DNA of 39,763 nt from a candidate division WWE3 bacterium RIFOXYD1_FULL_39_9 (GCA_001773295.1 MEWG01000022.1:1-39763); one strand, 5' to 3'; shown: positions 2,973 to 28,772, counted from the first letter of the stretch. Notes: a model not told the origin generated them from the sequence alone. Numbers and translations: made by a program.

Positions 2973-3039
2973 GGTTAAATAGTACATAATCAACCGCCCC
3001 ACTTCAATAGTCTTTATCTTATTGACTTTAATTTCCATA

Positions 3040-4065
3040 ATGAAATATCCTATTGAAGTGTTTGCTAAAAAATTGGTAATTCTCATTTCTCTGCTGCTCC
3101 TTATAACTATAGGTGCTCTTGTTTATGTCACGTGGATAAAAACGGTTAATACGAATATTTCCGAGATACTTAATCCTTTTGCTATTTTGAATAAGAAGGA
3201 CCAACAAACTCCTCCAAAAGAGCCGATAAACATATTTTCATCTAGTTTAACTGACAAGGAAATAAATATTGCACTCCTAGGAATTGACAGACGAAGTAAG
3301 TTTGAATCGGCCTATAGGACCGACACTATGGTTATCCTATCTATTAATGTTACCAAAAACAGAATTCTACTTATTTCCATACCCCGCGATCTGTGGGTAG
3401 AAAATTCCAGAGTGAACGCGCTTTATATTCAAGGTGGTTGGGAGTCACTTCAGAGTGCCTTCAAAGAGATTACTGGACTTGAAGTTGATAACTACATACT
3501 TACTGACTTTGAAGACTTCGCATGGATTATTGACAGTTTCGGTGGAGTAGAAGTGGCGGTTGAGAACAGTTTTGTGGACAGCCAGTATCCTGTAGACGTG
3601 ACGAAAACATACCAAACTGTAGCATTTGAGCAAGGGACAGAAGTAATGGACGGTCAGCGCGCACTTATTTTCTCAAGATCCAGAAAAGGTACTAACGGAG
3701 AGGGAAGTGACTGGGCAAGAATGAAAAGACAACATCTTCTTCTCAAAGGAATGGTTGGGGCGGTTCTACAACCCAAGAGTATTTTTAATCCAATGAATGT
3801 GGAGCAAGCTTATAAAATGATTACAGATGGCCGTATGGACACATCTCTTACATTGTCAGACGCATATTATCTTTGGGATATGTATAAGGATAAGGACAAG
3901 TATACTTATGTGTCCTTGTTTCTCGACTCTGACTACGTCTTCAATCCTCCAATGGAGGATTACGGCGGAGCTTGGGTTCTGGCGCCAATCGATCCTACCT
4001 ACGCAGCTTTCCATAACAAAGTTAAGGAAGTCGTAAATCAACCCGTGCCTAGTACATTGCAATAG
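3040..4065 (+). CDS. LytR-Cps2A-Psr (LCP) family glycopolymer-to-cell-wall phosphotransferase
   Basis: An N-terminal TM (LVILISLLLLITIGALVYV) is followed by LLGIDRR...RTDTMVILSIN...ISIPRDLWV...FGGVEV..., the conserved LCP core. The ORF track starts at TTG 3022; I prefer the ATG at 3040 (MKYPIE...). Confidence 0.85.
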   Translation: MKYPIEVFAKKLVILISLLLLITIGALVYVTWIKTVNTNISEILNPFAILNKKDQQTPPKEPINIFSSSLTDKEINIALLGIDRRSKFESAYRTDTMVILSINVTKNRILLISIPRDLWVENSRVNALYIQGGWESLQSAFKEITGLEVDNYILTDFEDFAWIIDSFGGVEVAVENSFVDSQYPVDVTKTYQTVAFEQGTEVMDGQRALIFSRSRKGTNGEGSDWARMKRQHLLLKGMVGAVLQPKSIFNPMNVEQAYKMITDGRMDTSLTLSDAYYLWDMYKDKDKYTYVSLFLDSDYVFNPPMEDYGGAWVLAPIDPTYAAFHNKVKEVVNQPVPSTLQ

Positions 4066-10278: not shown

Positions 10279-12246
10279 TTAAAGCTTGGAACTGACCTTG
10301 GTGTCTTTGTTCAACAGAATCTCCTGTGATTTACCGTTTACTATTACAACATGTGTCTCTGAGTCAATTCCGGGTTGCTTCTGGATCGTCAAAGTGTATG
10401 TTCCGTTAGTAATAAGGTTATCGGGCAGAGCATACTTGAATGTCATTGACTTGGTTTCGTTAGGACCGAGTTCAATATAACCGGTAAAGTATGTTCTGTT
10501 GCGTTCCTGATCGGTTGAAGTTCCATCTTCCGAACCCTCTACGCTTATAAAGCTGGATCCAATAGGTGCGTACACTCTTACCCAATCCTTAAATCTTTTA
10601 ACAAAGGGGGCGTACTCATCTGAAGGCTGAGTGTAAGTGTAATCAATCTTGACCGTCCTTACCCATTTATTATTTTCCTTGGCAATGGTGTGCGTTACTT
10701 TTTTGTGAGTAAACCAATTTGTTTTGTCTCCGCCCAAATTTGTGGAAACAACCATGGAGTAGTCGCCTTCAGTCTTGTCAAAAACTCGGCCAGCAAAGTT
10801 GTATTTTTCGATTAACGCCTGAGCTTCGGGATCAAACATGTAAACAAGGATGTGTTTGCGTGTAGCAAGATTAATAGCCTTATCAATCATTTTTGGCCAC
10901 AGATTCTTATCTGCCTCGAATACATTTATAAGCATTGCTTCCATTAAGTCTCCTAATACTTTCTTTCTGTTTAGCTGTTCGCGTAACTCAAGTGAAGCAA
11001 TCTTTTCAAGTTCCAAGACCACATTCTCCGATGTGTAAGTTACGCCATTAACAGTTGCTGGACCTGTTACTTCAAGTAACTCCTTTACCACTTGAGTGTC
11101 AATGGCAACAATACCGTCTACCGGTTTGATCTCATAAGGATTAAGTCTTCCGGCCAAGGTGTAGAACTTCAGAAACTGATCCATGGAGGTTATAAAGTCA
11201 GGAGATGCGTTCATGTCTCTGGCATACCATCTCTCTACTAATAGATACTTTGTGTAAGCAGCAGGTGGGTCCGGAAAGTCGTATGTTGCGTCTATCGCGT
11301 CTAAAGCAAGATCGATGCTGTACATATCTTTGGAGGAAAAGTCCGACTGTAAAAGACCGTTATTAATCTTAAATGTAGCGTAATTGGTCATAAATCCACC
11401 TGTTGGTCTGAGCTCTTTATCGTTCTGCATTATTATCATGTATCTCTTCTCAGGGGTATCTACAGCTAATAGTTTAGGGAAAAGGGATAAAGCAACTTTA
11501 ATGTCAGGGCCGTATTCACCGGATTTTGAAAGGGTATTCTTTATAAATTCCAGATTTGATCTTACAGCTACGCCGTTTATCTCTTCAGGGTATTTAGCGG
11601 TATTTATAGATTCAAACTCTTTACCAATCTTAGATACTTTTTCAATTACACCGTCCATCTGACCGGCCACTTCAGGCATGATAGAAACCCATGACTGAAA
11701 TGCTTCCATAAGTCCCTGTTCCTCTGGAACTTCTTGACCCTCTTCGATTTTTAATCCTGCAGCATCTGCAAACGGCAACACAATTACTGAAGCTTCCCTC
11801 ATGGCGTCAATTCCGTAGAAACCGGCATTTATAAATTTATCTGAATCTGAATAAAATTCATTTAGCTTAAACAGCCCCATGTTTTTAGCCCAACCAAAGT
11901 TATCTTCTCTACTTTTGCGCAGAGCTGTTAAATCTTTTTCAGTTTGTTTAAGATTTTTTTCCAATGCAACTAAATCTCTATCTTTAAGCGAAGTTCCAAT
12001 AGAGTCTGCGTCTCTCTGTACCGTCTTTACTGCAGCTAAAACTGAATAAGCAGGTCTGATTAAAAATAAGTAACCAAGTGTAATTAAAACACCAAGTATT
12101 GCGATCATAACTATTCCTGTGACACCAAGCTTCATTGATAATTTATTTTTCATAGGGAGTTTATTATTAATGTTCAGTTTACCAATATCGTTTGATTGGG
12201 TTAAACCACCATCATTTTTTTTATTCCAAAATTTTGCGTTATTCAT
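10279..12246 (-). CDS. DUF4012-like membrane-anchored extracytoplasmic protein, function unknown
   Basis: 655 aa with one N-terminal TM (GVTGIVMIAILGVLITLGYLFLI) and a coiled-coil-like stretch. The core includes MQNDKELRPTGGFMTNYATF, which I recognise as the DUF4012 hallmark (ELR.TGG). The family assignment is from memory, not a search. Confidence 0.6.
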   Translation of the reverse strand: MNNAKFWNKKNDGGLTQSNDIGKLNINNKLPMKNKLSMKLGVTGIVMIAILGVLITLGYLFLIRPAYSVLAAVKTVQRDADSIGTSLKDRDLVALEKNLKQTEKDLTALRKSREDNFGWAKNMGLFKLNEFYSDSDKFINAGFYGIDAMREASVIVLPFADAAGLKIEEGQEVPEEQGLMEAFQSWVSIMPEVAGQMDGVIEKVSKIGKEFESINTAKYPEEINGVAVRSNLEFIKNTLSKSGEYGPDIKVALSLFPKLLAVDTPEKRYMIIMQNDKELRPTGGFMTNYATFKINNGLLQSDFSSKDMYSIDLALDAIDATYDFPDPPAAYTKYLLVERWYARDMNASPDFITSMDQFLKFYTLAGRLNPYEIKPVDGIVAIDTQVVKELLEVTGPATVNGVTYTSENVVLELEKIASLELREQLNRKKVLGDLMEAMLINVFEADKNLWPKMIDKAINLATRKHILVYMFDPEAQALIEKYNFAGRVFDKTEGDYSMVVSTNLGGDKTNWFTHKKVTHTIAKENNKWVRTVKIDYTYTQPSDEYAPFVKRFKDWVRVYAPIGSSFISVEGSEDGTSTDQERNRTYFTGYIELGPNETKSMTFKYALPDNLITNGTYTLTIQKQPGIDSETHVVIVNGKSQEILLNKDTKVSSKL

Positions 12247-12257
12247 AACAACTTAAA

Positions 12258-12263
12258 ATTATA
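12258..12263 (-). promoter_or_regulatory. candidate -10 box (perfect TATAAT) for the DUF4012-recO unit
   Basis: The minus strand reads ...CTTTTATAATTTTAAGTTGTT-ATG. TATAAT lies 11 nt upstream of the ATG at 12246, inside the 58-nt gap after the sugar transferase gene. The -35 is poor (TTTAAT). Confidence 0.3.
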
Positions 12264-12304
12264 AAAGAAATGCGCAACTAATTAAAGTAGATGCTATTTC
12301 CAGT

Positions 12305-12949
12305 TTACAATGCTCCTTTACCACTAAGAACCGCAAAGGGTGTCTTTAGGATTAGTAGTATATCAAACCAAATAGACTTTGTTTTGGCGTATTTAGCGTC
12401 AAGTTTCACCCTGTCCATAAATCCAACATTGGATCTTCCGCTAACTTGCCAAAGCCCTGTAATACCAGGTTTTACCTTCAATGCTTCTTCCAAGTAAGGT
12501 GCTGCTTCAGGATATTTCTGCAACTGTTCCTCGATTTCGTAAAAGTAATAGGCACGCGGACCTACAATACTCATTGTACCGAGCAGCACATTAAAAAACT
12601 GAGGCATCTCATCGATACTTAGTTTCCTAATAATCTTAGCACCTTTTAGAAGTCTCGGGTCTTCGTCTGCACTTAATTTATAGCTATTCTCCATGTACTT
12701 TTTATGGAGTTCTGGATAGTTGTCTTTTAAGAAATCATAGCCGTTTACAACCATTGATCTGAGTTTAAACATTTTGAAAGGTCTCTTATCTTTTCCTACC
12801 CTATCTTTTATATCTGCAAAAACAGGACCTTCCGGAGAAACAAGTTTAACCCATAACGCGCCGCCTATTAAAAGTGGTGAAAAAAGTATTATCCCGCAGA
12901 TTGAACCTATAATATCCATTAATCTCTTAGTTATGTCGTATAAACTCAT
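12305..12949 (-). CDS. small (PglC/WbaP C-terminal type) polyprenyl-phosphate phosphoglycosyl transferase, the initiating enzyme
   Basis: 214 aa. It has an N-terminal re-entrant hydrophobic helix (IIGSICGIILFSPLLIGGALWV), KRPFKMFKLRSM, SIDEMPQFFNVLLGTMSIVGPR and ITGLWQVSGRS, the bacterial sugar transferase signatures. Confidence 0.9.
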   Translation of the reverse strand: MSLYDITKRLMDIIGSICGIILFSPLLIGGALWVKLVSPEGPVFADIKDRVGKDKRPFKMFKLRSMVVNGYDFLKDNYPELHKKYMENSYKLSADEDPRLLKGAKIIRKLSIDEMPQFFNVLLGTMSIVGPRAYYFYEIEEQLQKYPEAAPYLEEALKVKPGITGLWQVSGRSNVGFMDRVKLDAKYAKTKSIWFDILLILKTPFAVLSGKGAL

Positions 12950-12985
12950 ATATGTTTAGCAGGGAGCTGTATCACCATAATAATA

Positions 12986-14080
12986 TCAAATATTTTTGCT
13001 CGTCAAATCATTAACGAGTTTTTTGATTTTTCCATTGAAGACATCTTTGCTAAATTCTTTTGCTCTCGAAATACAGTCTTCCTCAGAAAATTTACCGAGA
13101 TCAAAGTTTTTAAGAGTCTCGCATAACGATTCTACAGTCTGTTCTTCAAAGAAAACGCCGGTTTTACCCTCTATTATAGTTTCAGTCACTCCCCCTTTCC
13201 CGTAGGCTATAACAGCTTTGCCCATTGCCATAGCCTCTAGTGGAACAATTCCAAAATCCTCCAATTGTGTGTTTATCAAAGCCTTACATTTTCTAACTGT
13301 ATCCACTTTGATGTCATCTGCGTATCCCAAAAACTCGATATTTTCGTTCGCAATGCTTTTTAGTCTTTCCATATCTGTACCAACCCCGATTATTTTCAGC
13401 TTTAAATTCAATCTTTTACAAGCTTCGATTGCTAAGTCAACTTTTTTCCATGCCACTAAACGAGTTATCACTAAATAGTAGTCTGAGGCTGCAGAGCTAT
13501 TATTCGCCGTCTCTTTGAAGTTATTCATATCTACAAACGGGTAAATGATTGTCGACTCCCTGTTCAAATATTTTTTTATGCGCCTTTGAGCGTTGCGCGA
13601 GTTTGCTATCAAGAAATCTACTCTTCTTGCCGCAGTATAATCGGCCATTCTAAAATAGCTTAAGAAATAAGAAAGAAATCTTTTTAATCTGGGACTAAAG
13701 TAGCTATCCGGCTCCCAAAACATTCTCCCAGGTGAATTCATGTAACAAATGTGGATTTGATCGGCACGGGTAATGGCGTGATGCGCATATCTTGAAGAAA
13801 TTGAGAAAACTAACTCGTAGTCCTCAAGCTTAAATGACTCGATCCCCAATATATGAAACAAAAAAACCGAATAGAACCTGTTCAGTTTAACCTTAAAAGG
13901 CAGTACCTGCATAAAAGAAGTAATTACTTTAACACCACGTTTCTTAAACCTGTTGACCCAAAATTCAGTTGCTACGGGAGTAAACACATCTGCCTCAGGC
14001 CAAAGCTCCGAAACAGCTTCAACAACGTTTTCCTGACCTCCTCTTTGTATTAAATCGTCGCATACAATAGCTATTTTCAT
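12986..14080 (-). CDS. GT-B fold glycosyltransferase (GT4-like)
   Basis: MKIAIVCDD... start and a C-terminal E-x7-E region (EDFGIVPLEAMAMGKAVIAYGKGGVTETI). The ORF track starts at TTG 14095; I prefer the ATG at 14080. Confidence 0.85.
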   Translation of the reverse strand: MKIAIVCDDLIQRGGQENVVEAVSELWPEADVFTPVATEFWVNRFKKRGVKVITSFMQVLPFKVKLNRFYSVFLFHILGIESFKLEDYELVFSISSRYAHHAITRADQIHICYMNSPGRMFWEPDSYFSPRLKRFLSYFLSYFRMADYTAARRVDFLIANSRNAQRRIKKYLNRESTIIYPFVDMNNFKETANNSSAASDYYLVITRLVAWKKVDLAIEACKRLNLKLKIIGVGTDMERLKSIANENIEFLGYADDIKVDTVRKCKALINTQLEDFGIVPLEAMAMGKAVIAYGKGGVTETIIEGKTGVFFEEQTVESLCETLKNFDLGKFSEEDCISRAKEFSKDVFNGKIKKLVNDLTSKNI

Positions 14081-14096
14081 ATCTTTATAACCCAAT

Positions 14097-14120
14097 CACT
14101 TGCGTTGTTTTATGCAAGTG
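14097..14120. promoter_or_regulatory. perfect 7-bp inverted repeat (CACTTGC-N10-GCAAGTG) in the divergent GT/GT intergenic region
   Basis: cacttgc lies at 14097-14103 and gcaagtg at 14114-14120. The right arm supplies the TG of an extended -10-like element TGaAATAAT (hexamer 14122-14127), 9 nt upstream of the ATG at 14137. Confidence 0.35.
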
Positions 14121-14136
14121 AAATAATAGTAACATT

Positions 14137-15273
14137 ATGATTATAGGCTTAAATGGTCAAAAGTTACTTACTAAATCGCCGGCCGGACCGGAGAGGTATA
14201 CCTTAAGCCTCTACAAAGCTCTCGCCGGTCTCGACAAGACTAATCAGTATATTATCTATCTTGAAAACGATCCGACTGAATTTCCGGAAGTTAAATACTT
14301 CGAACAATTTCCAAACTTTAGACTCAAACAGTTAACAAAGATTGTTTCATGGACACATATTAGTCTTCTGCTAGAACTACTTAGAAACCCTGTAGATGTA
14401 TTTTTTTCACCGGTGCACACATTGCCGTTTATAAAAACATTTGGAACTAAATACGTTTCAATGATTCACGGGCTGGAATATAAAAGTAATGAGATTTATA
14501 GCACACTTTCAGCTCGAGGCTTACTTCATCCGTTTGTTCTTTGGTACACCATGTTAATTGCCGATTTAATTATTGTTCCATCGAGGTTTACAAAAAAGGC
14601 TGTAAAAACAAGTCGGTTATTACAAAATATGGAAAAGGTTAAAGTTATTTACGAAGGTGTAAACGATACTTTTTATAAAAGAAATGAACTTGAGATAAGC
14701 GAAATTAAATCCAAGTACGGTCTCTCAGGAAAAAATTACGTTATCTTTGTTTCAACGATTCAACCAAGAAAGAATATTCCAAATCTTGTTAAGGGTTTTA
14801 GTATGGCATTGGAGTCGAAAAATGAATTGAAAGAAACTATTCTGGTTATAGTAGGTGAAAAAGGCTGGTCCTTCGAGGAATCTATTGCTGCACCAACTAA
14901 ATATAATGTTGTGAATAATGTTAAGTTTTTAGGCTGGGTAGATCAGAGTGATCTACCTACGTTGATGTCAGGTGCCGCAGCATACGTTATGCCGTCTTTT
15001 GAAGAAGGCTTTAGTCTTACAATTCTCGAGGCCATGGCTTCAGAAGTTCCTGTTATAGCTTCGGATATTGAAACTCACAAAGAAATAGGAAACAATTATT
15101 GTAATTTCGTAAATCCAAACAGTCCTGAGGAAATTAAAAAAGCATTAATCAAAGTTCTTACTGGTCAAGTGGAGGCAAACAGAATTGAAAATGCAAAAAA
15201 TTATGCGAGAAGTTTTACATGGAAAGAAACTGCTATGAGAACTCTGTCTGCTTTTGAATCTTTGTTAGCTTAG
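14137..15273 (+). CDS. GT-B fold glycosyltransferase (GT4-like)
   Basis: FVSTIQPRKN... and EEGFSLTILEAMASEVPVIASDIETHKEI (E-x7-E), the typical group-1 architecture. Confidence 0.85.
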   Translation: MIIGLNGQKLLTKSPAGPERYTLSLYKALAGLDKTNQYIIYLENDPTEFPEVKYFEQFPNFRLKQLTKIVSWTHISLLLELLRNPVDVFFSPVHTLPFIKTFGTKYVSMIHGLEYKSNEIYSTLSARGLLHPFVLWYTMLIADLIIVPSRFTKKAVKTSRLLQNMEKVKVIYEGVNDTFYKRNELEISEIKSKYGLSGKNYVIFVSTIQPRKNIPNLVKGFSMALESKNELKETILVIVGEKGWSFEESIAAPTKYNVVNNVKFLGWVDQSDLPTLMSGAAAYVMPSFEEGFSLTILEAMASEVPVIASDIETHKEIGNNYCNFVNPNSPEEIKKALIKVLTGQVEANRIENAKNYARSFTWKETAMRTLSAFESLLA

Positions 15274-16407
15274 TGTCTTATCGAAAACCTCTTTTGTAAT
15301 TTCGGCTGTTTTTAACCAATTATATTTCTTAACTTGAGCGTATCCTTTTTGTCTCAACATCTCTTTTAACTCTGAGTATTTTACAGTTTCACTAATTTTT
15401 TGGGCAATATCGTCAACTGATTGCGGGTTAAAATAAACAACTGAGTCGTCGAAGACTTCTCTGTGACAAGGTATATCTGAAATCACACACGGCAAACCTA
15501 CGGACTGTGCTTCAAGCGGCGTTAAACTAAAACCTTCCTTTAGAGATGGGAAAACGTACAGATCCGCCGTTTTCCTGAGAGCGACTATCTCGTGGTCGGT
15601 AATGTAACGAATATTCCCCGGTAACACAACGTCCTTCTCCAATCCTTTAGATTTAACATAATCTAAAACATCTTCAGAAAACTTATCTTTTTTTCCAACT
15701 AATACCATTTGACCTAAGTAAGTTCCCTCCGTTTTCATTTGTTCAAAAGCGTCGATCAGCCGTTTAACATTTTTGTGCTCATACATGCTACTAATATATA
15801 AAAGGAAATTCCTGTTAATTCCAAGCTGAGTAAGATCTAACTCGACATCGTTTGCCGTAGTAAATACGGGATCAACCCCTTCGTATGCAAGTACAAATTT
15901 ACTGTCACTTAAAAATCCATAATATTTCATCATGTCGTTCTTAACATCGTTTGATGGAACAATTACATACTTGGATCTGATAAGTGCCCAAGTTAGAACT
16001 AATTTATAAATAAACTTTTTAAAACGAAAATATGGTTTTGGTAATGTTGTACCCCTTTCAGTACTGTATGTGTGCATGATTATGTCGGGAATTGCCGTTA
16101 CTAATTTAAACGGATATAAAACAGGAATATTAAAATGAGGAACATAAAGCAAATCCAGTGGGTATTTTAAAACGTAGTATAAAAAAACAAATTGTTCGTA
16201 CCACGTATACCATTTAACGTCTGCCAAAACTTTAATAAAATTATGATTTTCCGGCTCGTAGCTTTTAAAGCCTTTTTCTCTCAGGAAAATATAATATTTA
16301 TTGGAGGAATCCACTTTTTCAAGATGCTCGACAATATTCTTAACATATCGACCCGGGCCGGCCTCACCGTAAAACCTTGCATCTATGCCAATTATTTTGG
16401 GTTTCAT
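15265..16407 (-). CDS. GT-B fold glycosyltransferase (GT4-like)
   Basis: MKPKIIGIDARF... and KEGFSLTPLEAQSVGLPCVISDIPCHREV (E-x7-E). Its 3' end overlaps the convergent GT by 9 nt. Confidence 0.85.
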   Translation of the reverse strand: MKPKIIGIDARFYGEAGPGRYVKNIVEHLEKVDSSNKYYIFLREKGFKSYEPENHNFIKVLADVKWYTWYEQFVFLYYVLKYPLDLLYVPHFNIPVLYPFKLVTAIPDIIMHTYSTERGTTLPKPYFRFKKFIYKLVLTWALIRSKYVIVPSNDVKNDMMKYYGFLSDSKFVLAYEGVDPVFTTANDVELDLTQLGINRNFLLYISSMYEHKNVKRLIDAFEQMKTEGTYLGQMVLVGKKDKFSEDVLDYVKSKGLEKDVVLPGNIRYITDHEIVALRKTADLYVFPSLKEGFSLTPLEAQSVGLPCVISDIPCHREVFDDSVVYFNPQSVDDIAQKISETVKYSELKEMLRQKGYAQVKKYNWLKTAEITKEVFDKTLS

Positions 16408-16440: not shown

Positions 16441-16476
16441 CGTCAATTTGACATATTTCTTTGCTAAACTCAAAAT
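16441..16476. promoter_or_regulatory. back-to-back -35-like boxes (CGTCAA-T-TTGACA) and a candidate wzx promoter
   Basis: Plus strand: TTGACA 16448-16453, a 17-nt spacer, CAAAAT 16471-16476, then 7 nt to the ATG at 16484. Minus strand: TTGACG (16446..16441), 15 nt, TATAAA, then 12 nt to the ATG at 16407. The two -35 boxes form a near-palindrome. Confidence 0.3.
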
Positions 16477-16483
16477 TAAAACA

Positions 16484-17701
16484 ATGTTAAAGTCGTACAA
16501 ATCGTTGTTCAAAATATCTCTAATAAGTACGGGTAATATTTTTAACTCCTTAATAGGCTTTGTCTATCTAACTGCCGCGGCAAAGTTTCTTACTCTTGAG
16601 GACTTTGGAAGATACAGTTTAATCACAAGTTTATTAGTTTCAATTTCGAAGCTTGTAGATTTTGGGACTAATTCTTTATTTGTTGCCAAATCTATCTCCA
16701 ATGAAGACAAAGAAATCTCGGACTTTTTTTATACTCTAAAAATTCTGCTGTTTTTTATAACTATTCCTATCTCGCTTCTCGCATTAAACATTCTTAAAGT
16801 TTTTGATCTTACAACATTTGTGCTTTTTGTTATCGGTTTAATTGCTTACACAATTAATTACACGTTTTATGCGATTTTTCAAAAAAACGAAAAATATGTT
16901 CAACTTATTTTGCTAAACACCATACCTGCAATTATTAAAGCTTTGTCAGCCGGTGGATTATTCTTAGGTCTGATCAAACCTGAAATAAATACACTTTTTG
17001 GAATTTTCGGTATGTCCATTCTGTCCAGTGTTCTGTTGCTACCGTTCATACCCAATAATTTAAGGAAATTTAAATTTCATGTCGGTAACTCAATTAAACT
17101 TCTAAGAGAGGCGCTCTCTCCGGGTCTTTCCTTGTTAATATATGAGGCCTGGCCGGCAATAAATAACGCTATTGCAAAGCTTTCAAGCGGTTTTGCAGAT
17201 GTTGGTGTATTTTCTTTGGCAAGTAAAATATCCAACGTGTTTTCCTTAATTTCTCTCTCGATATTTACAGTTCTGCTTCCAAAAAACGCTGAACGTAAAA
17301 GGGATAAACTTAGATATGACTTCAAAGAAACCATTTTATTATCAGTTCTTCTTTTAGTTCTTTCTTTTGCTGCAATTGTTGTCTCTGAATTGTTTATTCA
17401 AATTGTTTTTGGAAATAAATTTGAAGGCTCGCTTGGTTTGCTTGATATGTTAATTTTTGCAAGTGCGGTGACGGCAATTCAAAACTTTGTGGAAAATTAC
17501 TTTTATGTGGAGCAGCAGACAAAATATCTCGGTGGCATTAACACAACAAGATTACTTATGTTCCTTGTTTTTGCATTAGTACTAATTCCATCGTTACATT
17601 TAAAAGGACTTGCGCTTTCAAATCTTCTTTCAGCAATCATAGGAGTTGCAATCACCTCGCTAGTAATAAGGAAGTTAGAATCGAACCAACCCGCGATTTA
17701 G
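16484..17701 (+). CDS. wzx: Wzx-type polysaccharide flippase (MOP superfamily, Polysacc_synt-like)
   Basis: About 405 aa and hydrophobic throughout. The N-terminal pattern (SLISTGNIFNSLIGFVYLTAAAKFLTLEDFGRYSLITSL...DFGTNSLFVAKSI) is typical of O-unit flippases. The ORF track starts at TTG 16448; I prefer the ATG at 16484. Confidence 0.75.
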   Translation: MLKSYKSLFKISLISTGNIFNSLIGFVYLTAAAKFLTLEDFGRYSLITSLLVSISKLVDFGTNSLFVAKSISNEDKEISDFFYTLKILLFFITIPISLLALNILKVFDLTTFVLFVIGLIAYTINYTFYAIFQKNEKYVQLILLNTIPAIIKALSAGGLFLGLIKPEINTLFGIFGMSILSSVLLLPFIPNNLRKFKFHVGNSIKLLREALSPGLSLLIYEAWPAINNAIAKLSSGFADVGVFSLASKISNVFSLISLSIFTVLLPKNAERKRDKLRYDFKETILLSVLLLVLSFAAIVVSELFIQIVFGNKFEGSLGLLDMLIFASAVTAIQNFVENYFYVEQQTKYLGGINTTRLLMFLVFALVLIPSLHLKGLALSNLLSAIIGVAITSLVIRKLESNQPAI

Positions 17702-20556
17702 AATTTCACACCTGGGATTTTACCGGCTGCCTCTAATTCGGAAGGTAAATACCACAAAACCCAATCTCCATCTTCTTTTATAACAATCGGTTTATAACCA
17801 TATCCCTCAACCTTTTCACTATATCTGCCTTTCTTGGTCACTAGAATCAATCGCTCTGTTTCTTTAGCAACTTCCGGCACTCTCGATCCCACATCTGGTA
17901 CAAAATCGATAATCGTAAACGGGCTGTCAGTATAGAAAAGTGCCAACGGAACTTCAATTCTGTCTAGAAATACCTGTTCTTTAGTTCCAAAAACCTTGTC
18001 TTTATGTACCATTAGTCTGGCCTGTGAACCGGTTAAATCTGAGGTATAAACAAGCTTCCTATTCAAGAATAAGTAAAACAACGAAGAAACAGTAATCACA
18101 TAAATCAACAGTGCTTTTACAACAACAGAATCATACTTTGGATATCTTCTGAAAAACCAACTCATTGAGTCCGTAATAAATCTTCCAATAATAATAGCTG
18201 CTACCGGATATATCGGCGTGATGTACCACACAAGCTTGGATTGCGCAGCTGAGAAAAATGTAAAGACAAATATTAACCAGACTGCTAAGAATATTGAAAC
18301 GCGCTCTTTGTACTTTACGATCTTATAGAATAAGTAGACCAACGAAGGAATTAAAATTACAAACCATACTCTCATACTTACTTTCAACACAATCAAATAC
18401 CAATAAAACGGCCTGCCCTTATCTTCTATGGCACTAAATGCTCTGTCGAAAACGTGGTAGCCGATATAGTTATCTACAAAACTTACTCCGTAAAGCTGAT
18501 ACATTCTAATATGCCAAGGAAGTGCGATTGCTAAACTTCCGAGCAAAAATATGAGTAGTCCGTTAACGGCTGATCTATCAAACTTTTTGTTAATGATAAT
18601 TTGTACTAACTCAAATACAAAAACAACCGCAAATGGAATAAATCCGACTACGCCTTTTGTCATAACCGCTAATCCCATGAACAGACCTGATATTAGATAC
18701 GCTACCCACGCGCGCGACGGTTTCCAACAATAATACAAATAAAGTGCTGTTAGTATAAAAAAGCCGCAAGTTACGTCCAACATTGAAGCCCGTGAGTAAT
18801 ATAAAAATTGAGCTGTTGTTGCAATCGATAAAGCCGCAAGAAACGCCGATGTTTTATTAAAAATGCGTTTTGCGAAGATATAAGTAAAAACAATCGTTAA
18901 AATACCGAAAATTGCAGAAGGTAGCCTTACCGCTAAACTAGTGTATCCAAGCAGCTTCATAGATCCGGCAGCCATCCACATATATAAAGCAGGCTTCTCG
19001 TACCATTCCTTATCCGTCCACCATCTCTGAGTAATATAATCGCCCGTCGTGATCATGTTTTTGGCAATTTTTGAGTAGATTGCCTCATCCCAAGGTATGA
19101 GATGTGTGGAATTTAGCCCGATACCAATCAAAGTAACTGAGATAATCAAAATAGTAATGACTGCAAGTTTATTAGACCTTATGAATACAGATAAAACCTC
19201 TCTCAACGAAGATTGGGATTTCACAACGTTTAAGCCGTAAAGATAAAAAAGAACTATAACAATCCAAAAAAACTCTGAGTTAAATGAATAAAATATTCCA
19301 CCTATCATCCAGCCTATCAGAACAGAGAACATCGCAGTCGATAGAAGAGATTTTTCCAAGGTCTGACCGTGAAGCGCACCGTATAACAAAACTGCACTTA
19401 ACACAAAAATTAAGAGGGCGTACGTGGACAGTCCTAAGATACCTGTTTCTGCAATCAACTCTCCCCAAATTGTATGGGCAGGCACTCTTGTATTTAATCC
19501 GGCAGGATCTCTACTAAAATAAACTGGAGCAATTTTAGTTTTATTAAAATGTTCAAAAAAACCTCCGTACCCACCGCCCAAAATTGGATATGCTTCAAAT
19601 ATTTGGTATGTGCCGGTAAGTAACAAAATATGTGAATCAAAAGAATCAAGTCGATAGTGGAAATATTGTTTTACTTTCGCTCTAAAAGGACTAGCCTTAT
19701 TCATGTACTCAATAACAAGAGGAGTACTCATCAAAATCAGGGAGAGAATCACAAGACCGATACCTTTTAAGCCAATCTTCCTGTACAAAAATAAAGACAC
19801 AAAGACAATTAGAGCAACGGCGTCGATGATCCAAGCGGTTCTGGAATTTGTAAGAAGCAGGCTAACTACAAAAGATACCGAAACTACAGCAAAAAAAAGC
19901 TTGCTCTTAACCTTCCTTTCTGTAAGAACAAGAACACAGGCAATAGGTAATAAGGCAGCTAACAACGATCCGTAGTGATTAACATCCCAGAAAGTCGAGC
20001 CTATCCTTGGAATGTTACCAGGAATATTCCACAACGCGCCAATTATTTTTCCTGTCGTTTCGTATAAGAAATATTGGAAGTAACCGAACAAAGTCAGCAA
20101 AAATACAATGACTATATAAAACTTCAGATGTTTGAGAATAAGTTCCTGTCTTTCAGAATAAAAGTTTTTTAGATATACGGCTAAAACAACAACTGTAGAA
20201 AAAAACCCATATAATAGAACAGATGATTTGAGATTCCACGAAAAAAATATTGAAAGTCCCCGAATTGCCCACAGTAAAATTAGTAAAATCAAAACCGGGT
20301 CGTTCAACAGCTCTTTAACTTTGGCGATGTCTTTTTTTATAAAAAGTAAATACACCAACGTAGCAACTCCTGCGGCCAGAAGTGAAAACATAAAGGCTCT
20401 AATTGGCATAAGATCCCAAATAAAGAAACTAAACAGCTCTTTGTGAAGTAAAACCGAAAGAACAAACAAAACTAAAACAGCAATATCAAATCTTTTAACA
20501 ATCAGAATATAAGAGATGATGAATATTAGGGCTATTGAAACAATTTCTAGGTTCAT
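17698..20556 (-). CDS. fusion protein: N-terminal Wzy_C (O-antigen ligase/polymerase-like) domain plus C-terminal PMT_2/ArnT-like GT-C glycosyltransferase domain
   Basis: Residues about 1-450 (19210-20556) carry RIGSTFWDVNHYGSLL, TNSRTAWI, YPILGGGYGGF and AHTIWGELIAETGILG, the Wzy_C hallmarks. Residues about 460-952 (17701-19180) carry WDEAIYSKIAKNM..TGDYI...WYEKPALYMW...RLPSAIFG, the GT39/GT83 PMT_2 hallmarks. I verified that WDEAIY maps to 19075-19092. Confidence 0.8.
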   Translation of the reverse strand: MNLEIVSIALIFIISYILIVKRFDIAVLVLFVLSVLLHKELFSFFIWDLMPIRAFMFSLLAAGVATLVYLLFIKKDIAKVKELLNDPVLILLILLWAIRGLSIFFSWNLKSSVLLYGFFSTVVVLAVYLKNFYSERQELILKHLKFYIVIVFLLTLFGYFQYFLYETTGKIIGALWNIPGNIPRIGSTFWDVNHYGSLLAALLPIACVLVLTERKVKSKLFFAVVSVSFVVSLLLTNSRTAWIIDAVALIVFVSLFLYRKIGLKGIGLVILSLILMSTPLVIEYMNKASPFRAKVKQYFHYRLDSFDSHILLLTGTYQIFEAYPILGGGYGGFFEHFNKTKIAPVYFSRDPAGLNTRVPAHTIWGELIAETGILGLSTYALLIFVLSAVLLYGALHGQTLEKSLLSTAMFSVLIGWMIGGIFYSFNSEFFWIVIVLFYLYGLNVVKSQSSLREVLSVFIRSNKLAVITILIISVTLIGIGLNSTHLIPWDEAIYSKIAKNMITTGDYITQRWWTDKEWYEKPALYMWMAAGSMKLLGYTSLAVRLPSAIFGILTIVFTYIFAKRIFNKTSAFLAALSIATTAQFLYYSRASMLDVTCGFFILTALYLYYCWKPSRAWVAYLISGLFMGLAVMTKGVVGFIPFAVVFVFELVQIIINKKFDRSAVNGLLIFLLGSLAIALPWHIRMYQLYGVSFVDNYIGYHVFDRAFSAIEDKGRPFYWYLIVLKVSMRVWFVILIPSLVYLFYKIVKYKERVSIFLAVWLIFVFTFFSAAQSKLVWYITPIYPVAAIIIGRFITDSMSWFFRRYPKYDSVVVKALLIYVITVSSLFYLFLNRKLVYTSDLTGSQARLMVHKDKVFGTKEQVFLDRIEVPLALFYTDSPFTIIDFVPDVGSRVPEVAKETERLILVTKKGRYSEKVEGYGYKPIVIKEDGDWVLWYLPSELEAAGKIPGVKF

Positions 20557-21689
20557 CTGGTAGATAATAACTTATTATATATTTCTAACGTCTTTTGGGC
20601 AGCATTTTCCCATGTATATTCTTGCTTAGTGTGTTCATCTACAACCGGTCGCGGCGCGTAAAACTCTCTCTTCAATGCGGTTTTAATAGAATCAATGTCC
20701 CCGGGGTCGCAATATGACGCCATTTCACCTAGATACTCTCGAGCTCTATCCCCTGAAGCGACCGCGTTCGCACCGCTTAGAATAGCTTCAAGACTTGTCA
20801 AACCGGTTGTTTCAAACCAACTGGCGGAAACACCGACTTTAGCAAAATGGTAGAAAGATGGCATATCCGCGTAAGGAACTGAATGTATATGTGTAATCCA
20901 CGGATTAGAAGATAAAGCTAAGTTAAATTTCCAATTATACTCAAAATGTTTATTTCCCGATTTGCTCCCTATAATAACTAACCTCAGGTCCTCTTTAGTC
21001 TCTTTTCTGAGTCTGGACACCGCTTCTATAATACTGAGCTGATTTTTTCTCGGCTCTACCCTACCGACACATATTATGTAATTCGAAAAACCAAGAGTAT
21101 TCGCATACTCACTTGAAGTTAAAAAGTTCTTGGAGACACCGTTACACACTTTAGCCCAGGAAAAATCTACGTTATAAGTATTTTTAAGATCTTCCGCTTC
21201 TCTAGTTGTTTGAACCAAAACGTAATCGGCCATTTGCAAAGTCTTCCTATGCATATTTTTAAAACCCAAAAAAATAGTTTTGAGAGTTGTGATGAATAAT
21301 TTGGGTTCAAATATTGATCTGTAGACGTCTTTAAAAACATCTCTGTGAAATTGATCTTTGAACAAAACTTTTGAAATTCTTCTAAAATCAAAAACGTACT
21401 CATTATCAAATCGCTGTACTTCTCTGACGCTGTGATGTATTGGGGACAAAACTAACGGTTTGCCGACTTTTTTAGCTCTCTGCGCCTGAAAATACGAGTC
21501 CGGATTCCAATCCAGCTGAAAAATATGAACTAGATCGTAACCTGAATAATCTACCTTGCTGTCATTTCCCAAACTTATATCTACACCGATACGTAACTTT
21601 CTCAACTCTTCGGCAGTGTTCTCAATCTGTATTCTATCTCCGCCAAGTCTATTTAATAGACCGCTGCGGCCTAGCAATAGCACTTTCAT
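20553..21689 (-). CDS. GT-B fold glycosyltransferase (GT4-like)
   Basis: MKVLLLGRSG...GGDRIQ, VGRVEPRKN and FETTGLTSLEAILSGANAVAS. There are 4-nt overlaps or 3-nt gaps with both neighbours. Confidence 0.8.
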   Translation of the reverse strand: MKVLLLGRSGLLNRLGGDRIQIENTAEELRKLRIGVDISLGNDSKVDYSGYDLVHIFQLDWNPDSYFQAQRAKKVGKPLVLSPIHHSVREVQRFDNEYVFDFRRISKVLFKDQFHRDVFKDVYRSIFEPKLFITTLKTIFLGFKNMHRKTLQMADYVLVQTTREAEDLKNTYNVDFSWAKVCNGVSKNFLTSSEYANTLGFSNYIICVGRVEPRKNQLSIIEAVSRLRKETKEDLRLVIIGSKSGNKHFEYNWKFNLALSSNPWITHIHSVPYADMPSFYHFAKVGVSASWFETTGLTSLEAILSGANAVASGDRAREYLGEMASYCDPGDIDSIKTALKREFYAPRPVVDEHTKQEYTWENAAQKTLEIYNKLLSTR

Positions 21690-21692
21690 GAT

Positions 21693-22838
21693 TTATTGAG
21701 CCTCCCTATATAACATCTCGTATTTATCAACAAATTTTTCCAAAGAATATTCATTCTTAACTCTATTATAAGCTTCATCTAAAACATAATTTTGAGATTT
21801 GAAAAGCTTGTATGTTTCGACAATTTTTATATAGAGATCGTCCATATCGCCGGTTTTAAAATATTTAACGGTATTTCCGGCGACCTCTTTTAATACTTCT
21901 AAGTCGCTACACACAACCGGATGTCTGGAGCTCATAGCCTCCACAAGCACGTAACCGAAACCTTCCGCAAGTGTAGGGAAAACAAACAGATCAATTGTTG
22001 CGTAAAATTTAACGTGATCCTCCTCATTAAATACTCCGGTAATAATTACTTTGTCGGCAATTCCTAAATTCTTAGTTAAATCTCTAAGTTCATTTTCCAA
22101 AACACCTCCACCTGCTAGTAACAAATAAAAATTATCTGAAATGTCACCGGACTTAACAAGTTTTGCAAAGGCGTTGATCAATATACTGTGTCCTTTCTCT
22201 TGCGACATGCGACTAACATTTCCTAAGATAAACGCACTGGATGGTACTTTGTAGCGTTGTAAAATTTCTTGTCGATACTCTCCAGAGCGCGATTGAAGAT
22301 CCTCATATTTTCTTAGATCTATCCCGTTATGAATAACTCTTAGTTTTTTTGGACGTATGCCTTCTTTTATTTTTACTGTTTTTCTTGATTCTGTTAAGGC
22401 AATTTCCGAAAAAGATAAAAGATTCACTAAAAAGGAGTACCAGAAAATAACAAAAGGTCTGATTAATCTCTTTACTGGAACGGACTCTTCCCACTCGGAA
22501 ATTGGTGTGTGCACATGAGTAATTCTGGCCCTAACTCCGGCAATTGAAGCTGCTAATAAAGCGTTAGAAGCCGCCTTCAGCTCGTGCGAATGTACAACTT
22601 GTATCTTATGTTTCTTCAAAAAAATTATAAGCTCAAGAATATAAAACGGGTCGATATCAAAATGTAATTTCTTAATAAAAACTCTGGCACCTTTACTTTT
22701 GTACGCATCAACAAGCTCTCCTTCTCGGCACCACACAAAGACAAAATGTCCTTTTGCCACCATACCCTCGACCAAATCAAGAACATGCTTTTCCATGCCG
22801 CCAAAATTACCTGAGTCTAATGTATATAAAATATTCAC
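21693..22838 (-). CDS. GT-B fold glycosyltransferase (GT4-like)
   Basis: MNILYTLDSGNFGGMEKHVLDL (GT4 N-terminal domain), VSRMSQEKG and AEGFGYVLVEAMSSRHPVVCSDLEVLKEV (E-x7-E). Confidence 0.85.
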   Translation of the reverse strand: MNILYTLDSGNFGGMEKHVLDLVEGMVAKGHFVFVWCREGELVDAYKSKGARVFIKKLHFDIDPFYILELIIFLKKHKIQVVHSHELKAASNALLAASIAGVRARITHVHTPISEWEESVPVKRLIRPFVIFWYSFLVNLLSFSEIALTESRKTVKIKEGIRPKKLRVIHNGIDLRKYEDLQSRSGEYRQEILQRYKVPSSAFILGNVSRMSQEKGHSILINAFAKLVKSGDISDNFYLLLAGGGVLENELRDLTKNLGIADKVIITGVFNEEDHVKFYATIDLFVFPTLAEGFGYVLVEAMSSRHPVVCSDLEVLKEVAGNTVKYFKTGDMDDLYIKIVETYKLFKSQNYVLDEAYNRVKNEYSLEKFVDKYEMLYREAQ

Positions 22839-24040
22839 TTTTTCTTAAACTCCAAATCTATAAGTTCGAGAAGATTGCTAACTTTTCCGGTCCAACTATT
22901 TTCTTTTGCAACTTTTTGACGTTCCTTTATTCGGACATCATTATCCTCCTCTAAGGCTAGTCGAATATTTTGCACAAACTCATTATGACTCTTCGAGATA
23001 TAGCAAACATCTTCAAACGGTTGGTAGGCAGGGAGGTCTGTGACAACCACCGGAAGTCCGGCGGCCAATCCTTCGTGGAATTTAACCGGAAAACATCCTC
23101 CCACGGTATAGTCATTCAATTGATAAGGAATAATGTAAACGTCAAAGCCTGCAAAGTAGTCCGGCATCTTTTTGTAGGGCTTGGTTCCCAAAAAATATAC
23201 GTTACCAAGATCTGCCATACCGATCTCCTCGATAGTTCCCTCTCTATCTTTTAGCGCAATGGGGCCAATAATCACAATCGAGTAGTTTGGATATGCTGAA
23301 GCAACTTTACGCATCAACGATCGATCAAACTTGTACTCATCTATTGCACCGGTAAATGCGATCACGGGTTTTGGAATTGACTTCAAATCATCCGGAATAT
23401 TTTGTTTGTTATTTCTCGAATTTTGAAATAGTTCATAATCACCGACATTTGGCGTGTAATGTATGTTGGTATTATATTTAGAAAGTTTATCGACCAAACC
23501 CGGAGCGGTTGCAAAAACAATATCTGCACGTCGGGCCAGTATTTCCTCTTGTTTATTAACAGCAGCTTTTTTTTCTTTCGTATCGTATTTTGGAAAACCC
23601 GCGTAGTTATCTACACAATCATAAATTAATAGATCGTGCTGAATACTTTTAATATAGTTGTCTATTCCAGGAATTTCAACATTGTAAATCCACATAACTG
23701 TTCTTTGTTTTTTGGTAAACCATCTGCCTGATATCTGTCTTATTTTCCAGGCATGAATTTTTGAAAGAAAATTGTAAAATGGCAAAAAGTTTAATGGAGA
23801 AATTATTTTTACTGTCCCTTCTGAATATTCCCAAGTAAGAAGACGCCTTAAACTCCATTTTTTGTTAAGGACCTGTCTCAAAAAAAGTCTACCTGTATTT
23901 ATCGGGGGGTCCACAAATACAACGCTATGTCCCTGTTCTGCTAATCTGGTCATAACGTGCTTTTTGTTCGTCCATAAAGGATAATCCCACAGTTGATTTG
24001 AAAAACATATTATGTTGTACTTCTCATTTTGGTTGTCCAT
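22835..24040 (-). CDS. GT-B fold glycosyltransferase (TuaH-like group-1 variant)
   Basis: The N-terminus (YNIICFSNQLWDYPLWTNKKHVMTRLAEQGHSVVFVDPP) and the C-terminal FPVKFHEGLAAGLPVVVTDL (the K..EY/H..G.PVV variant of the group-1 motif). Confidence 0.7.
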   Translation of the reverse strand: MDNQNEKYNIICFSNQLWDYPLWTNKKHVMTRLAEQGHSVVFVDPPINTGRLFLRQVLNKKWSLRRLLTWEYSEGTVKIISPLNFLPFYNFLSKIHAWKIRQISGRWFTKKQRTVMWIYNVEIPGIDNYIKSIQHDLLIYDCVDNYAGFPKYDTKEKKAAVNKQEEILARRADIVFATAPGLVDKLSKYNTNIHYTPNVGDYELFQNSRNNKQNIPDDLKSIPKPVIAFTGAIDEYKFDRSLMRKVASAYPNYSIVIIGPIALKDREGTIEEIGMADLGNVYFLGTKPYKKMPDYFAGFDVYIIPYQLNDYTVGGCFPVKFHEGLAAGLPVVVTDLPAYQPFEDVCYISKSHNEFVQNIRLALEEDNDVRIKERQKVAKENSWTGKVSNLLELIDLEFKKK

Positions 24041-24055
24041 ACAATAAAAACGTTG

Positions 24056-25759
24056 TTATTCTAGCTCGCACCAGCTGCCTACATACGCCTTTTTCCCAAT
24101 TATAGAGTATAACGGAGAGAAATACATTTGGTTATACCTAAGCTCTTTTAAGTGTTTTTTAATCCTTTTGTCATCGATTAGTTTCTTGGCTTCATAGACT
24201 TTGGGATTTGGTATGAATTTTTCGATGGTCTTCTCAACCAAAATAAGCTGTTTTGTCAAAAACCAAGAGCCGTCGTCGGTGTAAGACTGGATATAACAAT
24301 CATATTCTAAACCACCCGGAATTGACTGTCCTATTCCTGTAAAATCATTTTGCTTTTTTGCTGCAAAATATTTAGTGTATGTGCCGTCTAGTTGAATCCC
24401 CAATACTATTCCGCTGTCTTGCTGAATTTTTAATGCTTGATCCCATCTCAGAGCCTGTACAGTCAGGTATTCGTAATTTAATGCAAGACTAATAAAAATA
24501 AGTAAAGCTAGACCGGTGTATGCTAATTTCGTAATTTTGAACTCTAGTTCTTTAGCATAAGTTGCCGAGATAATTAAAACCAGTACAAAAACCGGCAACA
24601 AGTATCTGTCGTACAGGTCTTTTGTAACAAGCAGCAGTAGAAACTGCAGAACGAGATTTACTAGATAAAAATTTGATGTTTTCCTGTTTTTTCCTAAGAT
24701 TTTTGTTCTATTCTTTGTAATCGTATGTATAAGCCCGACGGTTGAAATAATAATCAGCACGATCAAAAAAATTTTGAATGGCGAGTTATCAAAGATACTA
24801 AAATTACTCCTAAATCCGGATTTTGAATAAAGTTCCTCAATATAAAATACGTTTCCAAGCGGGAAAATGTCCAACAAGTAGACGTGTCTCCCTAAAACAA
24901 ACGTTACTAAGGCTGTCACAGCAATATAAACAAGCTGTCTGAATTTCTTGGTTTGTTTAACAATTTCTTTGAAAAATCGCAAATCACCCAAAAACAACGG
25001 AAGCGTAAAAAAAATAAGGTATATAAAGCTATATCCAATTTGTTGTAGCCGTGGAACAAAATCGTTAATTTCCAAAAAAAGCGCTCTACTGCTCTCGTCA
25101 GTACTACTATATCTTGGCCAAAATACCCAAATCAGTATAAAAATTAATCCGGCTAAAGATTTTACGATTAAATGCTTCCATCGTACCTTCTTTTCACCGG
25201 CAAAGTAAAAGTAAATTGCTACCGGAATCATTAAAGCAGCGCTTTGCCTGACAAGAAATGCTGCGCCGTTTAAAAGAACACCTAATAAAAAATGCGTATC
25301 AGATTTTTTTTGAAAACCTAGTTGGTAATAATACAACGATACAATTATCAGACACAGAAAATAGATCTCTGTCATAAAGGTAACTGATGAAGCAAGTACA
25401 ATGGGATTAAATGCGTACAATGCAACCAATAAAGAAATAAGTTTCTTGTTCTCTGTTAAAAGACTTAAAAGTTTAAAAAGGAAAACTACAGAAACTACAT
25501 ATACAACAAACGACAACAGATGAAGAGACTGAAAACTTAGCCCAAATATCTGCGACCAAACGTACCCTAAGAATCCTTGGAAGATGAACGCGGGCTCGAT
25601 CTGATGATTTATAATTATATTGCCATTTCGGAAGGATTCGACTTGTCTTGCAAACAGCCAATCGTCATTTATTGGAAAGTTACCTCGTCCCAATAAAAGG
25701 AACAGGAAAGTTGCTACAACAGCAAATAATGCTATTTTTGGGGTAAACATTGTGCGCAC
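24056..25759 (-). CDS. polytopic membrane protein, putative GT-C fold glycosyltransferase (family unassigned)
   Basis: 567 aa. TM1 is followed by an acidic loop (FPINDDWLFARQVE). There are many hydrophobic segments up to about residue 430, then a soluble tail of about 130 aa. This is ArnT/PMT-like architecture judged by eye only. The start is GTG 25759 or ATG 25750. Confidence 0.5.
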   Translation of the reverse strand: MRTMFTPKIALFAVVATFLFLLLGRGNFPINDDWLFARQVESFRNGNIIINHQIEPAFIFQGFLGYVWSQIFGLSFQSLHLLSFVVYVVSVVFLFKLLSLLTENKKLISLLVALYAFNPIVLASSVTFMTEIYFLCLIIVSLYYYQLGFQKKSDTHFLLGVLLNGAAFLVRQSAALMIPVAIYFYFAGEKKVRWKHLIVKSLAGLIFILIWVFWPRYSSTDESSRALFLEINDFVPRLQQIGYSFIYLIFFTLPLFLGDLRFFKEIVKQTKKFRQLVYIAVTALVTFVLGRHVYLLDIFPLGNVFYIEELYSKSGFRSNFSIFDNSPFKIFLIVLIIISTVGLIHTITKNRTKILGKNRKTSNFYLVNLVLQFLLLLVTKDLYDRYLLPVFVLVLIISATYAKELEFKITKLAYTGLALLIFISLALNYEYLTVQALRWDQALKIQQDSGIVLGIQLDGTYTKYFAAKKQNDFTGIGQSIPGGLEYDCYIQSYTDDGSWFLTKQLILVEKTIEKFIPNPKVYEAKKLIDDKRIKKHLKELRYNQMYFSPLYSIIGKKAYVGSWCELE

Positions 25760-28757: not shown

Positions 28758-28772
28758 GTTACTCCAGTAAGC

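Follow-up and report, generated by a model that had tools for sequence, protein, structure and literature searches.

A class-wide protein of candidate division WWE3 bacteria that joins a Wzy_C module to an ArnT-like GT-C module

In a stretch of 39,763 nucleotides from candidate division WWE3 bacterium RIFOXYD1_FULL_39_9 (GCA_001773295.1, MEWG01000022.1:1-39763; this whole stretch is hereafter the window), one gene on the minus strand, 17698..20556, encodes a 952-amino-acid protein in which a Wzy_C module with the fold of the ligase WaaL is continuous with an ArnT-like glycosyltransferase of the GT-C type. The same fused frame is present in every other genome of the class that we sampled and in none of those sampled from elsewhere in the phylum, and it is very probable that its two modules are both active outside the cytoplasm and cooperate on one glycan. 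Each half belongs to a known family, and this is not new chemistry. What is undescribed in the searchable literature is that the two are covalently joined, that the joined form is confined to the class and universal in it, and that relatives exist in which the pair is split; literature searches pairing Wzy_C with PMT_2, O-antigen ligase with Patescibacteria or GT39, and Wzy with GT-C and fusion turned up no paper on the architecture. The first-pass annotation of this DNA had allowed that the architecture might be common and already characterised: it is indeed common, being class-universal with hundreds of database entries, but we found no characterisation of it.

The gene is one open frame followed by a stop codon, with no internal stop on translation, while the opposite (plus) strand over 17698-20556 is riddled with stops. 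Its start codon overlaps the stop codon of an upstream GT4 gene in the sequence ATGA (20553-20556), and its 3' end overlaps a convergent wzx gene by 4 nt (17698-17701). The first-pass annotation holds on these points; it had described a single polypeptide without stop or frameshift between the halves, a 4-nt overlap with a convergent Wzx gene and a position as the last gene of a minus-strand operon. The motifs that it quoted all lie in the translation in the order and spacing given, namely FWDVNHYGSLL (residues 189-199), TNSRTAWI (236-243), ILGGGYGGF (325-333) and AHTIWGELIAETGILG (360-375) in the N-terminal half, and WDEAIYSKIAKNM (489-501), WYEKPALYMW (518-527) and RLPSAIFG (544-551) in the C-terminal half. 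The short linker that it had placed near residue 450 falls at residues ~447-461 (19174..19218, minus strand) by AlphaFold secondary structure and hydropathy. This linker is predicted to be cytoplasmic and to contain a short amphipathic helix (AlphaFold helices 451-459); its sequence is unconserved (0-40% identity), and 12 of 14 class members retain its length.

The fusion is real and not an artefact of assembly. We sampled 401 genomes of the phylum: the window's own, 24 others of its class and approximately 376 from outside the class. A full-length fused frame (849-1052 amino acids, 30-53% identity) is present in all 24 of the other class genomes (family 12/12, order 2/2, remaining families 10/10) and in none of the ~376 genomes outside the class, where there are only stand-alone ArnT-like matches to residues ~450-890. 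A query with a stand-alone ortholog of the N-terminal half recovered the same 25 genomes, all as fused frames. A search of 5.8 billion protein clusters gave 321 matches, the best 120 of which are 901-1016 amino acids long and 46-54% identical over 93-100% of the query; all of these best 120 carry both domains, and the named ones are from candidate division WWE3 or Patescibacteria. Database labels for the fusion entries read only "glycosyltransferase family 39" or "ArnT-like". Among the best 150 matches listed in a profile search of 1.84 billion representatives, roughly 30-35 are full-length fusions, variants of 784-852 and of 1160 amino acids also carry both domains, and stand-alone GT-Cs rank below; all 150 belong either to the fusion family or to stand-alone GT-Cs. 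Scanning species-representative genomes yielded 61 loci, almost all of them in metagenome-assembled genomes with titles of Candidate Phyla Radiation (CPR) type or an uninformative 'bacterium'. One contig that carries the fused gene together with a paralog (L085, JAWABG010000068.1) is titled 'Candidatus Woesearchaeota archaeon' and is most likely a mis-binned CPR contig.

In favour of an artefact, in which an assembly or sequencing error joined two adjacent genes, some metagenomic contigs carry split versions, two with overlapping frames (described below). That all 24 independent class genomes, and more than 120 protein clusters of many sources, have the frame uninterrupted nevertheless rules out an assembly or frameshift artefact, and leaves this explanation a negligible probability.

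The N-terminal module (residues 1-446, 19219..20556, minus strand) was called a Wzy_C domain in the first-pass annotation, and both profile and fold matches agree. Pfam Wzy_C (PF04932) matches residues 226-379 (19420..19881, minus strand; G000:C22:19420-19881) with 47.8 bits against a gathering score of 31.7 (53.4 bits in the whole-genome scan), and an NCBIfam IctB-type Wzy_C model matches residues 58-422. Searched alone with Foldseek, this half has one match below 1e-3, WaaL (7tpg_B, E 8.8e-6, TMq 0.57, TMt 0.63), with RodA far behind; the whole model also recovers WaaL 7tpg_B, at E 4.6e-4. The link to WaaL is by fold only, as a profile built from 15 N-terminal halves had no match among PDB sequences at thresholds up to E 10. 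Members of PF04932 also include Wzy polymerases, the lipoteichoic acid ligase TacL and the O-oligosaccharyltransferases PglL and PilO.

Judged from AlphaFold helix order and hydropathy, the Wzy_C module has ~13 transmembrane helices and two predicted outer loops, residues 169-191 (with FWDVNH) and 286-362. The latter sits between helices 263-285 and 363-396, carries the motifs HYRxDSxxSH, GGGYG, RDP and RVPAH, and is followed by three more helices before the linker. R239, R302, H309, H361, G372 and G375 are invariant both among 61 close homologs and in the class-wide alignment; D304 and R349 are invariant in the former and at least 90% conserved in the latter, and R292, D350 and R357 are invariant among the 61 close homologs only. 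The histidine motif reads H361-T-x9-G372-xx-G375, with Thr or Ser in second position, and by inspection it fits the ligase-type pattern, H-[NSQ]-x9-G-xx-[GTY]. WaaL (PDB 7TPG) and the fusion thus have in common a Pfam family, a fold (TM ~0.6) and a large outer loop in which Arg and His residues are conserved, and an undecaprenyl-diphosphate-linked glycan at the outer face would likewise be the expected substrate of the fusion's N-terminal half. They differ in that WaaL has 12 helices rather than ~13, no sequence match between them is detectable, and the module described here is joined at its C-terminus to a second enzyme. The reaction of WaaL itself is impossible here because the organism has no lipopolysaccharide.

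The second half was likewise correctly read in the first-pass annotation as a PMT_2/ArnT-like GT-C enzyme, given its Pfam scores above cut-off and its homology to the solved ArnT. Its transmembrane module (residues 462-835, 18052..19173, minus strand; supported by Pfam, NCBIfam, a PDB profile and Foldseek) begins with a first helix at residues 462-478 followed by an outer loop with W-D490-E491. PMT_2 (PF13231) matches residues 521-666 with 69.3 bits (cut-off 26.1), and PMT (PF02366) matches residues 517-687 with 48.5 bits (cut-off 22.7), over profile positions 58-236 only. The NCBIfam ArnT model (PRK13279 / NF009784) scores 109.4 bits over residues 467-838, far under its equivalog cut-off of 567, and we rejected identification as an ArnT ortholog on this basis. 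Homology to ArnT is nonetheless clear: a profile of the family matches PDB ArnT 5ezm with E 3e-41 over profile positions 466-796, and Foldseek with the whole model finds ArnT 5f15 at E 4e-13 (TMt 0.64). ArnT residues D55/E56, E84/K85, D158, R270 and Y345 align with D490/E491, E520/K521, D594, R705 and Y778 of the fusion. All of the latter are invariant in 61 homologs and class-wide down to ~30% identity, except E491, which is nearly invariant (at least 90%). In ArnT, the aligned residues comprise acceptor and catalytic acids and the Lys, Arg and Tyr that bind the carrier phosphate.

Like ArnT (PDB 5EZM/5F15; lipid A 4-amino-4-deoxy-L-arabinose transferase, CAZy GT83), with which it has the GT-C fold in common, the fusion keeps these acids and phosphate-binding residues and ends in a predicted outer soluble domain. 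That domain (residues 836-952 and stop, 17698..18051, minus strand) is modelled as extracytoplasmic alpha/beta structure, with strands and helices over residues 843-945 at a predicted local distance difference test score (pLDDT) of ~90, and is the least conserved part of the protein (16-57% identity). The zinc-site histidines of ArnT, by contrast, are not conserved in register; lipid A, the ArnT substrate, is absent in this organism; and the ArnT-like module here stands behind a Wzy_C module.

The AlphaFold2 model, built with 61 homologs, has a pLDDT of 88.6 and a predicted template-modelling score (pTM) of 0.88 for the whole chain. The N-terminal half modelled alone has a pTM of 0.87, and the near-equality of the two scores suggests that the modules form a confidently packed pair. 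Helix order and hydropathy place loops 169-191, 286-362 and 479-523 on one side of the membrane and the linker on the K/R-rich cytoplasmic side. From this layout both catalytic loops are predicted to lie on the outer face, which answers in the affirmative, for the predicted topology, the question raised in the first-pass annotation of whether the two active sites face the same side. Both modules also look active, the catalytic-site motifs of their families being kept class-wide. Fusions often keep degenerate domains, and one of the modules might therefore be catalytically dead, acting as a membrane scaffold or substrate-binding partner only; however, since the family motifs are kept in both halves, and the halves diverge at similar rates across the class (27-55% identity to relatives for the N-terminal half, 34-51% for the C-terminal half), we regard this as very improbable.

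How the two modules would cooperate is less certain, and our tentative choice, which we find plausible, is that the Wzy_C module is a polymerase and the ArnT-like module a decorating single-sugar transferase on the same surface polymer. Under this model, the cluster's initiating transferase and GT4 enzymes would build an undecaprenyl-diphosphate-oligosaccharide, Wzx would flip it to the outer face, and the Wzy_C module would polymerise the repeat units. The ArnT-like module would take one sugar from a polyprenyl-monophosphate donor, supplied by the GT2-GtrA fusion or by the GtrB-like enzyme of this genome, and attach it to the repeat unit or growing chain that its neighbour holds. The whole would amount to a three-component glycosylation system with its GT-C member welded to the polymerase; the operon's other GT-C enzymes may then elaborate the polymer and an enzyme of the LytR-CpsA-Psr (LCP) family may attach it to the wall. 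We favour a polymerase with a decorator because this is the sole Wzy-type gene in a cluster that also holds a Wzx and a diphosphate-forming initiating transferase, because the second Wzx of the genome also has a Wzy_C gene as its partner, and because an LCP enzyme is available for final attachment. The context fits a Wzy polymerase in general: Wzx, Bac_transf and GT4 genes are in the cluster, and a Wzz-domain gene is found elsewhere in the genome.

Several observations weigh against this model. Neither sequence nor fold separates a Wzy polymerase from a ligase of the WaaL, TacL or PglL type; the only solved relative of the N-terminal half is a ligase, WaaL; and the histidine motif H-x-x9-G-xx-G was first described for ligases. 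The acceptor of the GT-C module may be glycan, lipid or protein. Among the more distantly related families of the class (L027-L031) the fusion has no Wzx beside it, and no donor synthase gene was found within the window. A GT-A synthase and GtrA-type parts are both present in the fusion's genome; neither is linked to the fusion gene, and their pairing with it is one that we infer.

The second and third of these points also speak for a rival reading, in which the GT-C module would prime a Ser/Thr of a surface protein (such as a pilin or S-layer protein) or a membrane glycolipid, onto which the Wzy_C module would then ligate the Wzx-flipped undecaprenyl-diphosphate-glycan en bloc, in the manner of WaaL, TacL or PglL. 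The PMT model PF02366 does score above its cut-off, but its match spans the common GT-C core only, and no MIR domain is among the Pfam matches of the fusion protein. Single-membrane bacteria do have Wzy_C ligases, such as TacL (PMC5727136), and the glycosyltransferase-rich genomes of WWE3 have been linked to possible glycoproteins or a glycosylated S-layer (PMC3812714). However, the gene has no candidate acceptor protein linked to it; in single-membrane bacteria it is normally LCP enzymes that ligate wall polymers, and one such enzyme is nearby; and a fusion that was a ligase would leave the Wzx-containing cluster without a polymerase candidate. On balance we think priming and ligation somewhat unlikely. 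The first-pass annotation had proposed that the fusion couples glycan transfer or polymerisation to single-sugar addition at the outer face. The domains and the predicted outward sites agree with that proposal, and its suggestion of a protein O-glycosylation machine is neither supported nor excluded. The PglC-type transferase, the many GT4s, Wzx, the further GT-Cs and the nearby LCP gene point first to a cell-wall glycopolymer.

Even if the Wzy_C module is a polymerase, its partner need not add single sugars. As has been proposed for the polymerase WpsI and the GT-C enzyme WpsJ of Lactococcus lactis (PMC9574508), the GT-C module here could instead move the completed chain off its lipid carrier and onto a different wall polymer, perhaps a second polymer built by the several other GT-Cs of the operon. 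Against such chain transfer, K521, R705 and Y778, which correspond to the monophosphate-carrier residues of ArnT, are kept, and the GT-C half is closest to ArnT, which uses a monosaccharide donor; moreover, the cluster starts with a PglC-type phosphoglycosyl transferase, which implies a diphosphate-linked rather than a monophosphate-linked intermediate. We therefore consider it improbable.

The polymerase-with-decorator model resembles in its logic the three- and four-component systems of Gram-positive bacteria (CsdC/CsdD/CflA, GacI-L and WpsI/WpsJ of Lactococcus and Streptococcus), in which a GT-A enzyme makes a polyprenyl-phosphate-sugar, GtrA or Wzx flips it, and a GT-C enzyme transfers the sugar outside the membrane onto a polymer made by the Wzx/Wzy route. 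One such GT-A/GtrA/GT-C system, in L. lactis, grafts side-chain glucose onto each repeat unit outside the membrane (PMC9574508). In those systems the polymerase and the GT-C are separate proteins, whereas the protein described here combines them in one chain and some relatives encode them in adjacent genes. Assembly of mycobacterial arabinogalactan and lipoarabinomannan (AftA-D, EmbA-C, Lcp1) is likewise directed to a lineage-wide wall polymer with several outside GT-Cs and LCP attachment; unlike the present case, it uses an ABC transporter and neither Wzx nor Wzy, and no Wzy_C-GT-C fusion is known in it. A bolder extension, which we put forward as unlikely, is that the fusion is the hub of an undescribed wall-polymer pathway that would define the WWE3 class, combining assembly of the Wzx/Wzy type with elaboration by GT-C enzymes as in mycobacteria, and in which lipid-phosphate-sugar glycosylation would be mechanically coupled to polymerisation or ligation; for example, the GT-C might modify or prime each unit for acceptance by the Wzy_C module, making of the single chain a 'prime-and-join' machine.

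Wzy polymerases or ligases and the GT-C enzymes that decorate their products are normally separate proteins, and the hand-over of substrate at the outer face is poorly understood. A fusion that is universal in a class and split in some of its relatives is strong genomic evidence that the two activities share a substrate; it offers a ready-made object for structural work on the Wzy/GT-C hand-over and a natural experiment in their cooperation. It may also serve as a marker gene for a wall-glycan pathway apparently core to the biology of WWE3, bacteria with genomes of ~1 Mb whose envelopes, to our knowledge, have never been chemically analysed.

The split relatives were found by a search of representative proteins and by contig look-ups only. 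Metagenomic stand-alone Wzy_C proteins prove to be specific orthologs of the N-terminal half; one, P0184, is 35% identical over 409 residues and has the family's own motifs. On each of the four contigs checked, the next gene after the stand-alone Wzy_C ortholog is a PMT/PMT_2 gene on the same strand and in the same order as in the fusion (L100:8001-10932, L102:8001-10841, L109:2129-4809 and L110:806-3611), the two genes being separated by gaps of 56 and 6 nt or overlapping by 52 and 29 nt. The Wzy_C proteins have 413-460 amino acids and their PMT_2 partners 491-498, and the one C-terminal partner compared is 36% identical to the C-terminal half of the fusion. The two pairs that overlap, by 29-52 nt, do so in different frames, and could be recent fissions or frameshifted fusions. 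Because split orthologs lie adjacent, the pairing of the two activities is older or wider than the covalent fusion.

In a tree of N-terminal halves the split forms make up one clade, weakly nested among fused forms, and the tree of C-terminal halves is broadly congruent; in both, the split forms group with one another close to some of the fused ones. The backbone lacks resolution, so fusion and fission are not distinguishable as the direction of change. In the other classes of the phylum, the best homologs of the C-terminal half are stand-alone ArnT-like proteins with no Wzy_C neighbour recognisable by BLAST.

A paralog of 697-774 amino acids stands directly behind the fusion in those families of the class that are more distant (L027:6099-8324, L028:6280-8373, L029:6069-8393, L031:11690-13801, L085:3005-5218 and L086:4912-7152). 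Its Wzy_C-like N-terminal half is 27-30% identical to that of the fusion, and its C-terminal part of ~300 amino acids is unrelated. What appeared to be a 4.2-kb insertion in L085 and L086 was rejected as such, being the fused gene with an adjacent paralog of 737-746 amino acids. We found no ortholog of the paralog in the window's own genome.

The neighbourhood of the fusion was compared among 14 relatives spanning the class. Directly upstream are three GT4 genes (378, 381 and 401 amino acids; 20553..24040, minus strand; Pfam Glycos_transf_1) that are translationally coupled to it. This block adjoins the fusion in every one of the 14; in three of these loci one of its GT4s is absent or fused. 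Next come two PMT_2-type GT-C genes (567 and 460 amino acids; 24056..27114, minus strand), of which the 460-amino-acid gene has a recognisable ortholog (36-57% identity) in the loci of 10 of the 14. Taken as a whole, the minus strand upstream of the fusion holds an AsnB-like gene, GT4s, a methyltransferase, two giant proteins, three mid-size polytopic proteins (two of them PMT_2) and the three GT4s. The convergent Wzx flippase gene (16448..17701, plus strand; Polysacc_synt 56.5 bits) begins the downstream side and is followed by three GT4s, a PglC-type Bac_transf initiating transferase, a DUF4012 protein (these last five genes at 10279..16407, assigned by Pfam and synteny) and RecO. The start of wzx is ambiguous: its longest frame runs from a TTG at 16448, with an alternative ATG at 16484. 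Of 9 f1/f2 relatives checked, 8 have a wzx ortholog no more than three genes from the fusion, and in 7 it is directly adjacent.

Most members of the family and order retain the 460-amino-acid GT-C, Wzx, Bac_transf, DUF4012 and RecO. Such class-wide conservation of the locus, unlike the hypervariability of O-antigen and capsule loci, points to a core wall polymer, and the fusion is probably central to a conserved cell-wall sugar-polymer pathway of the class. A gene for an LCP protein (3022..4065, plus strand; LytR_cpsA_psr 104 bits), a candidate for attachment of the polymer to peptidoglycan, lies ~14 kb from the fusion.

The DUF4012 protein (655 amino acids; 10279-12246, minus strand) stands after the PglC-type transferase and before recO in each of the 7 relatives' loci that reach that far, drawn from the family, the order and one more distant family. 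This domain is enriched in CPR and Gram-positive bacteria, its role is unassigned, and it has been seen in a Bifidobacterium capsule locus (PMC6744442). In the minus-strand run the sole sizeable gap (28758-29011, 254 nt) lies between a giant-protein gene and the gene of a 537-amino-acid polytopic protein, and an internal promoter may lie in it, for the stretch of operon that closes with the fusion.

The window's genome (1.09 Mb, 92% complete) has 12 PMT_2 and 5 Wzy_C matches. The first-pass annotation held the fusion to be the only Wzy-like candidate to pair with the adjacent Wzx; this stands within the cluster but not in the genome, where there are four other Wzy_C genes (C8:56922-59409, C27:21776-24016, C15:268-1566 and C13:9258-10511), the one on C8 being paired with its own Wzx. 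The match on C27 is weak and sub-threshold, in a 746-amino-acid frame that joins it to TPR repeats and has a run of unknown bases inside.

Two enzymes are candidate makers of polyprenyl-phosphate-sugar donors: a GT2+GtrA_DPMS_TM protein of 381 amino acids (G000:C42:19196-20341) and a GtrB/ArnC-like GT2 of 322 amino acids beside an epimerase-like gene (G000:C5:16973-17941). They are the likely sources of polyprenyl-phosphate-sugar for the genome's many GT-C enzymes. PMT_2 genes are unusually numerous for the size of the genome. One, at C20:20570-22081, adjoins a 553-amino-acid GT2; farther along the window's contig, at 52-72 kb, GT2 and PMT_2 genes form another block, and beyond the window's end three PMT_2 genes stand in a row at G000:C22:63312-66692.

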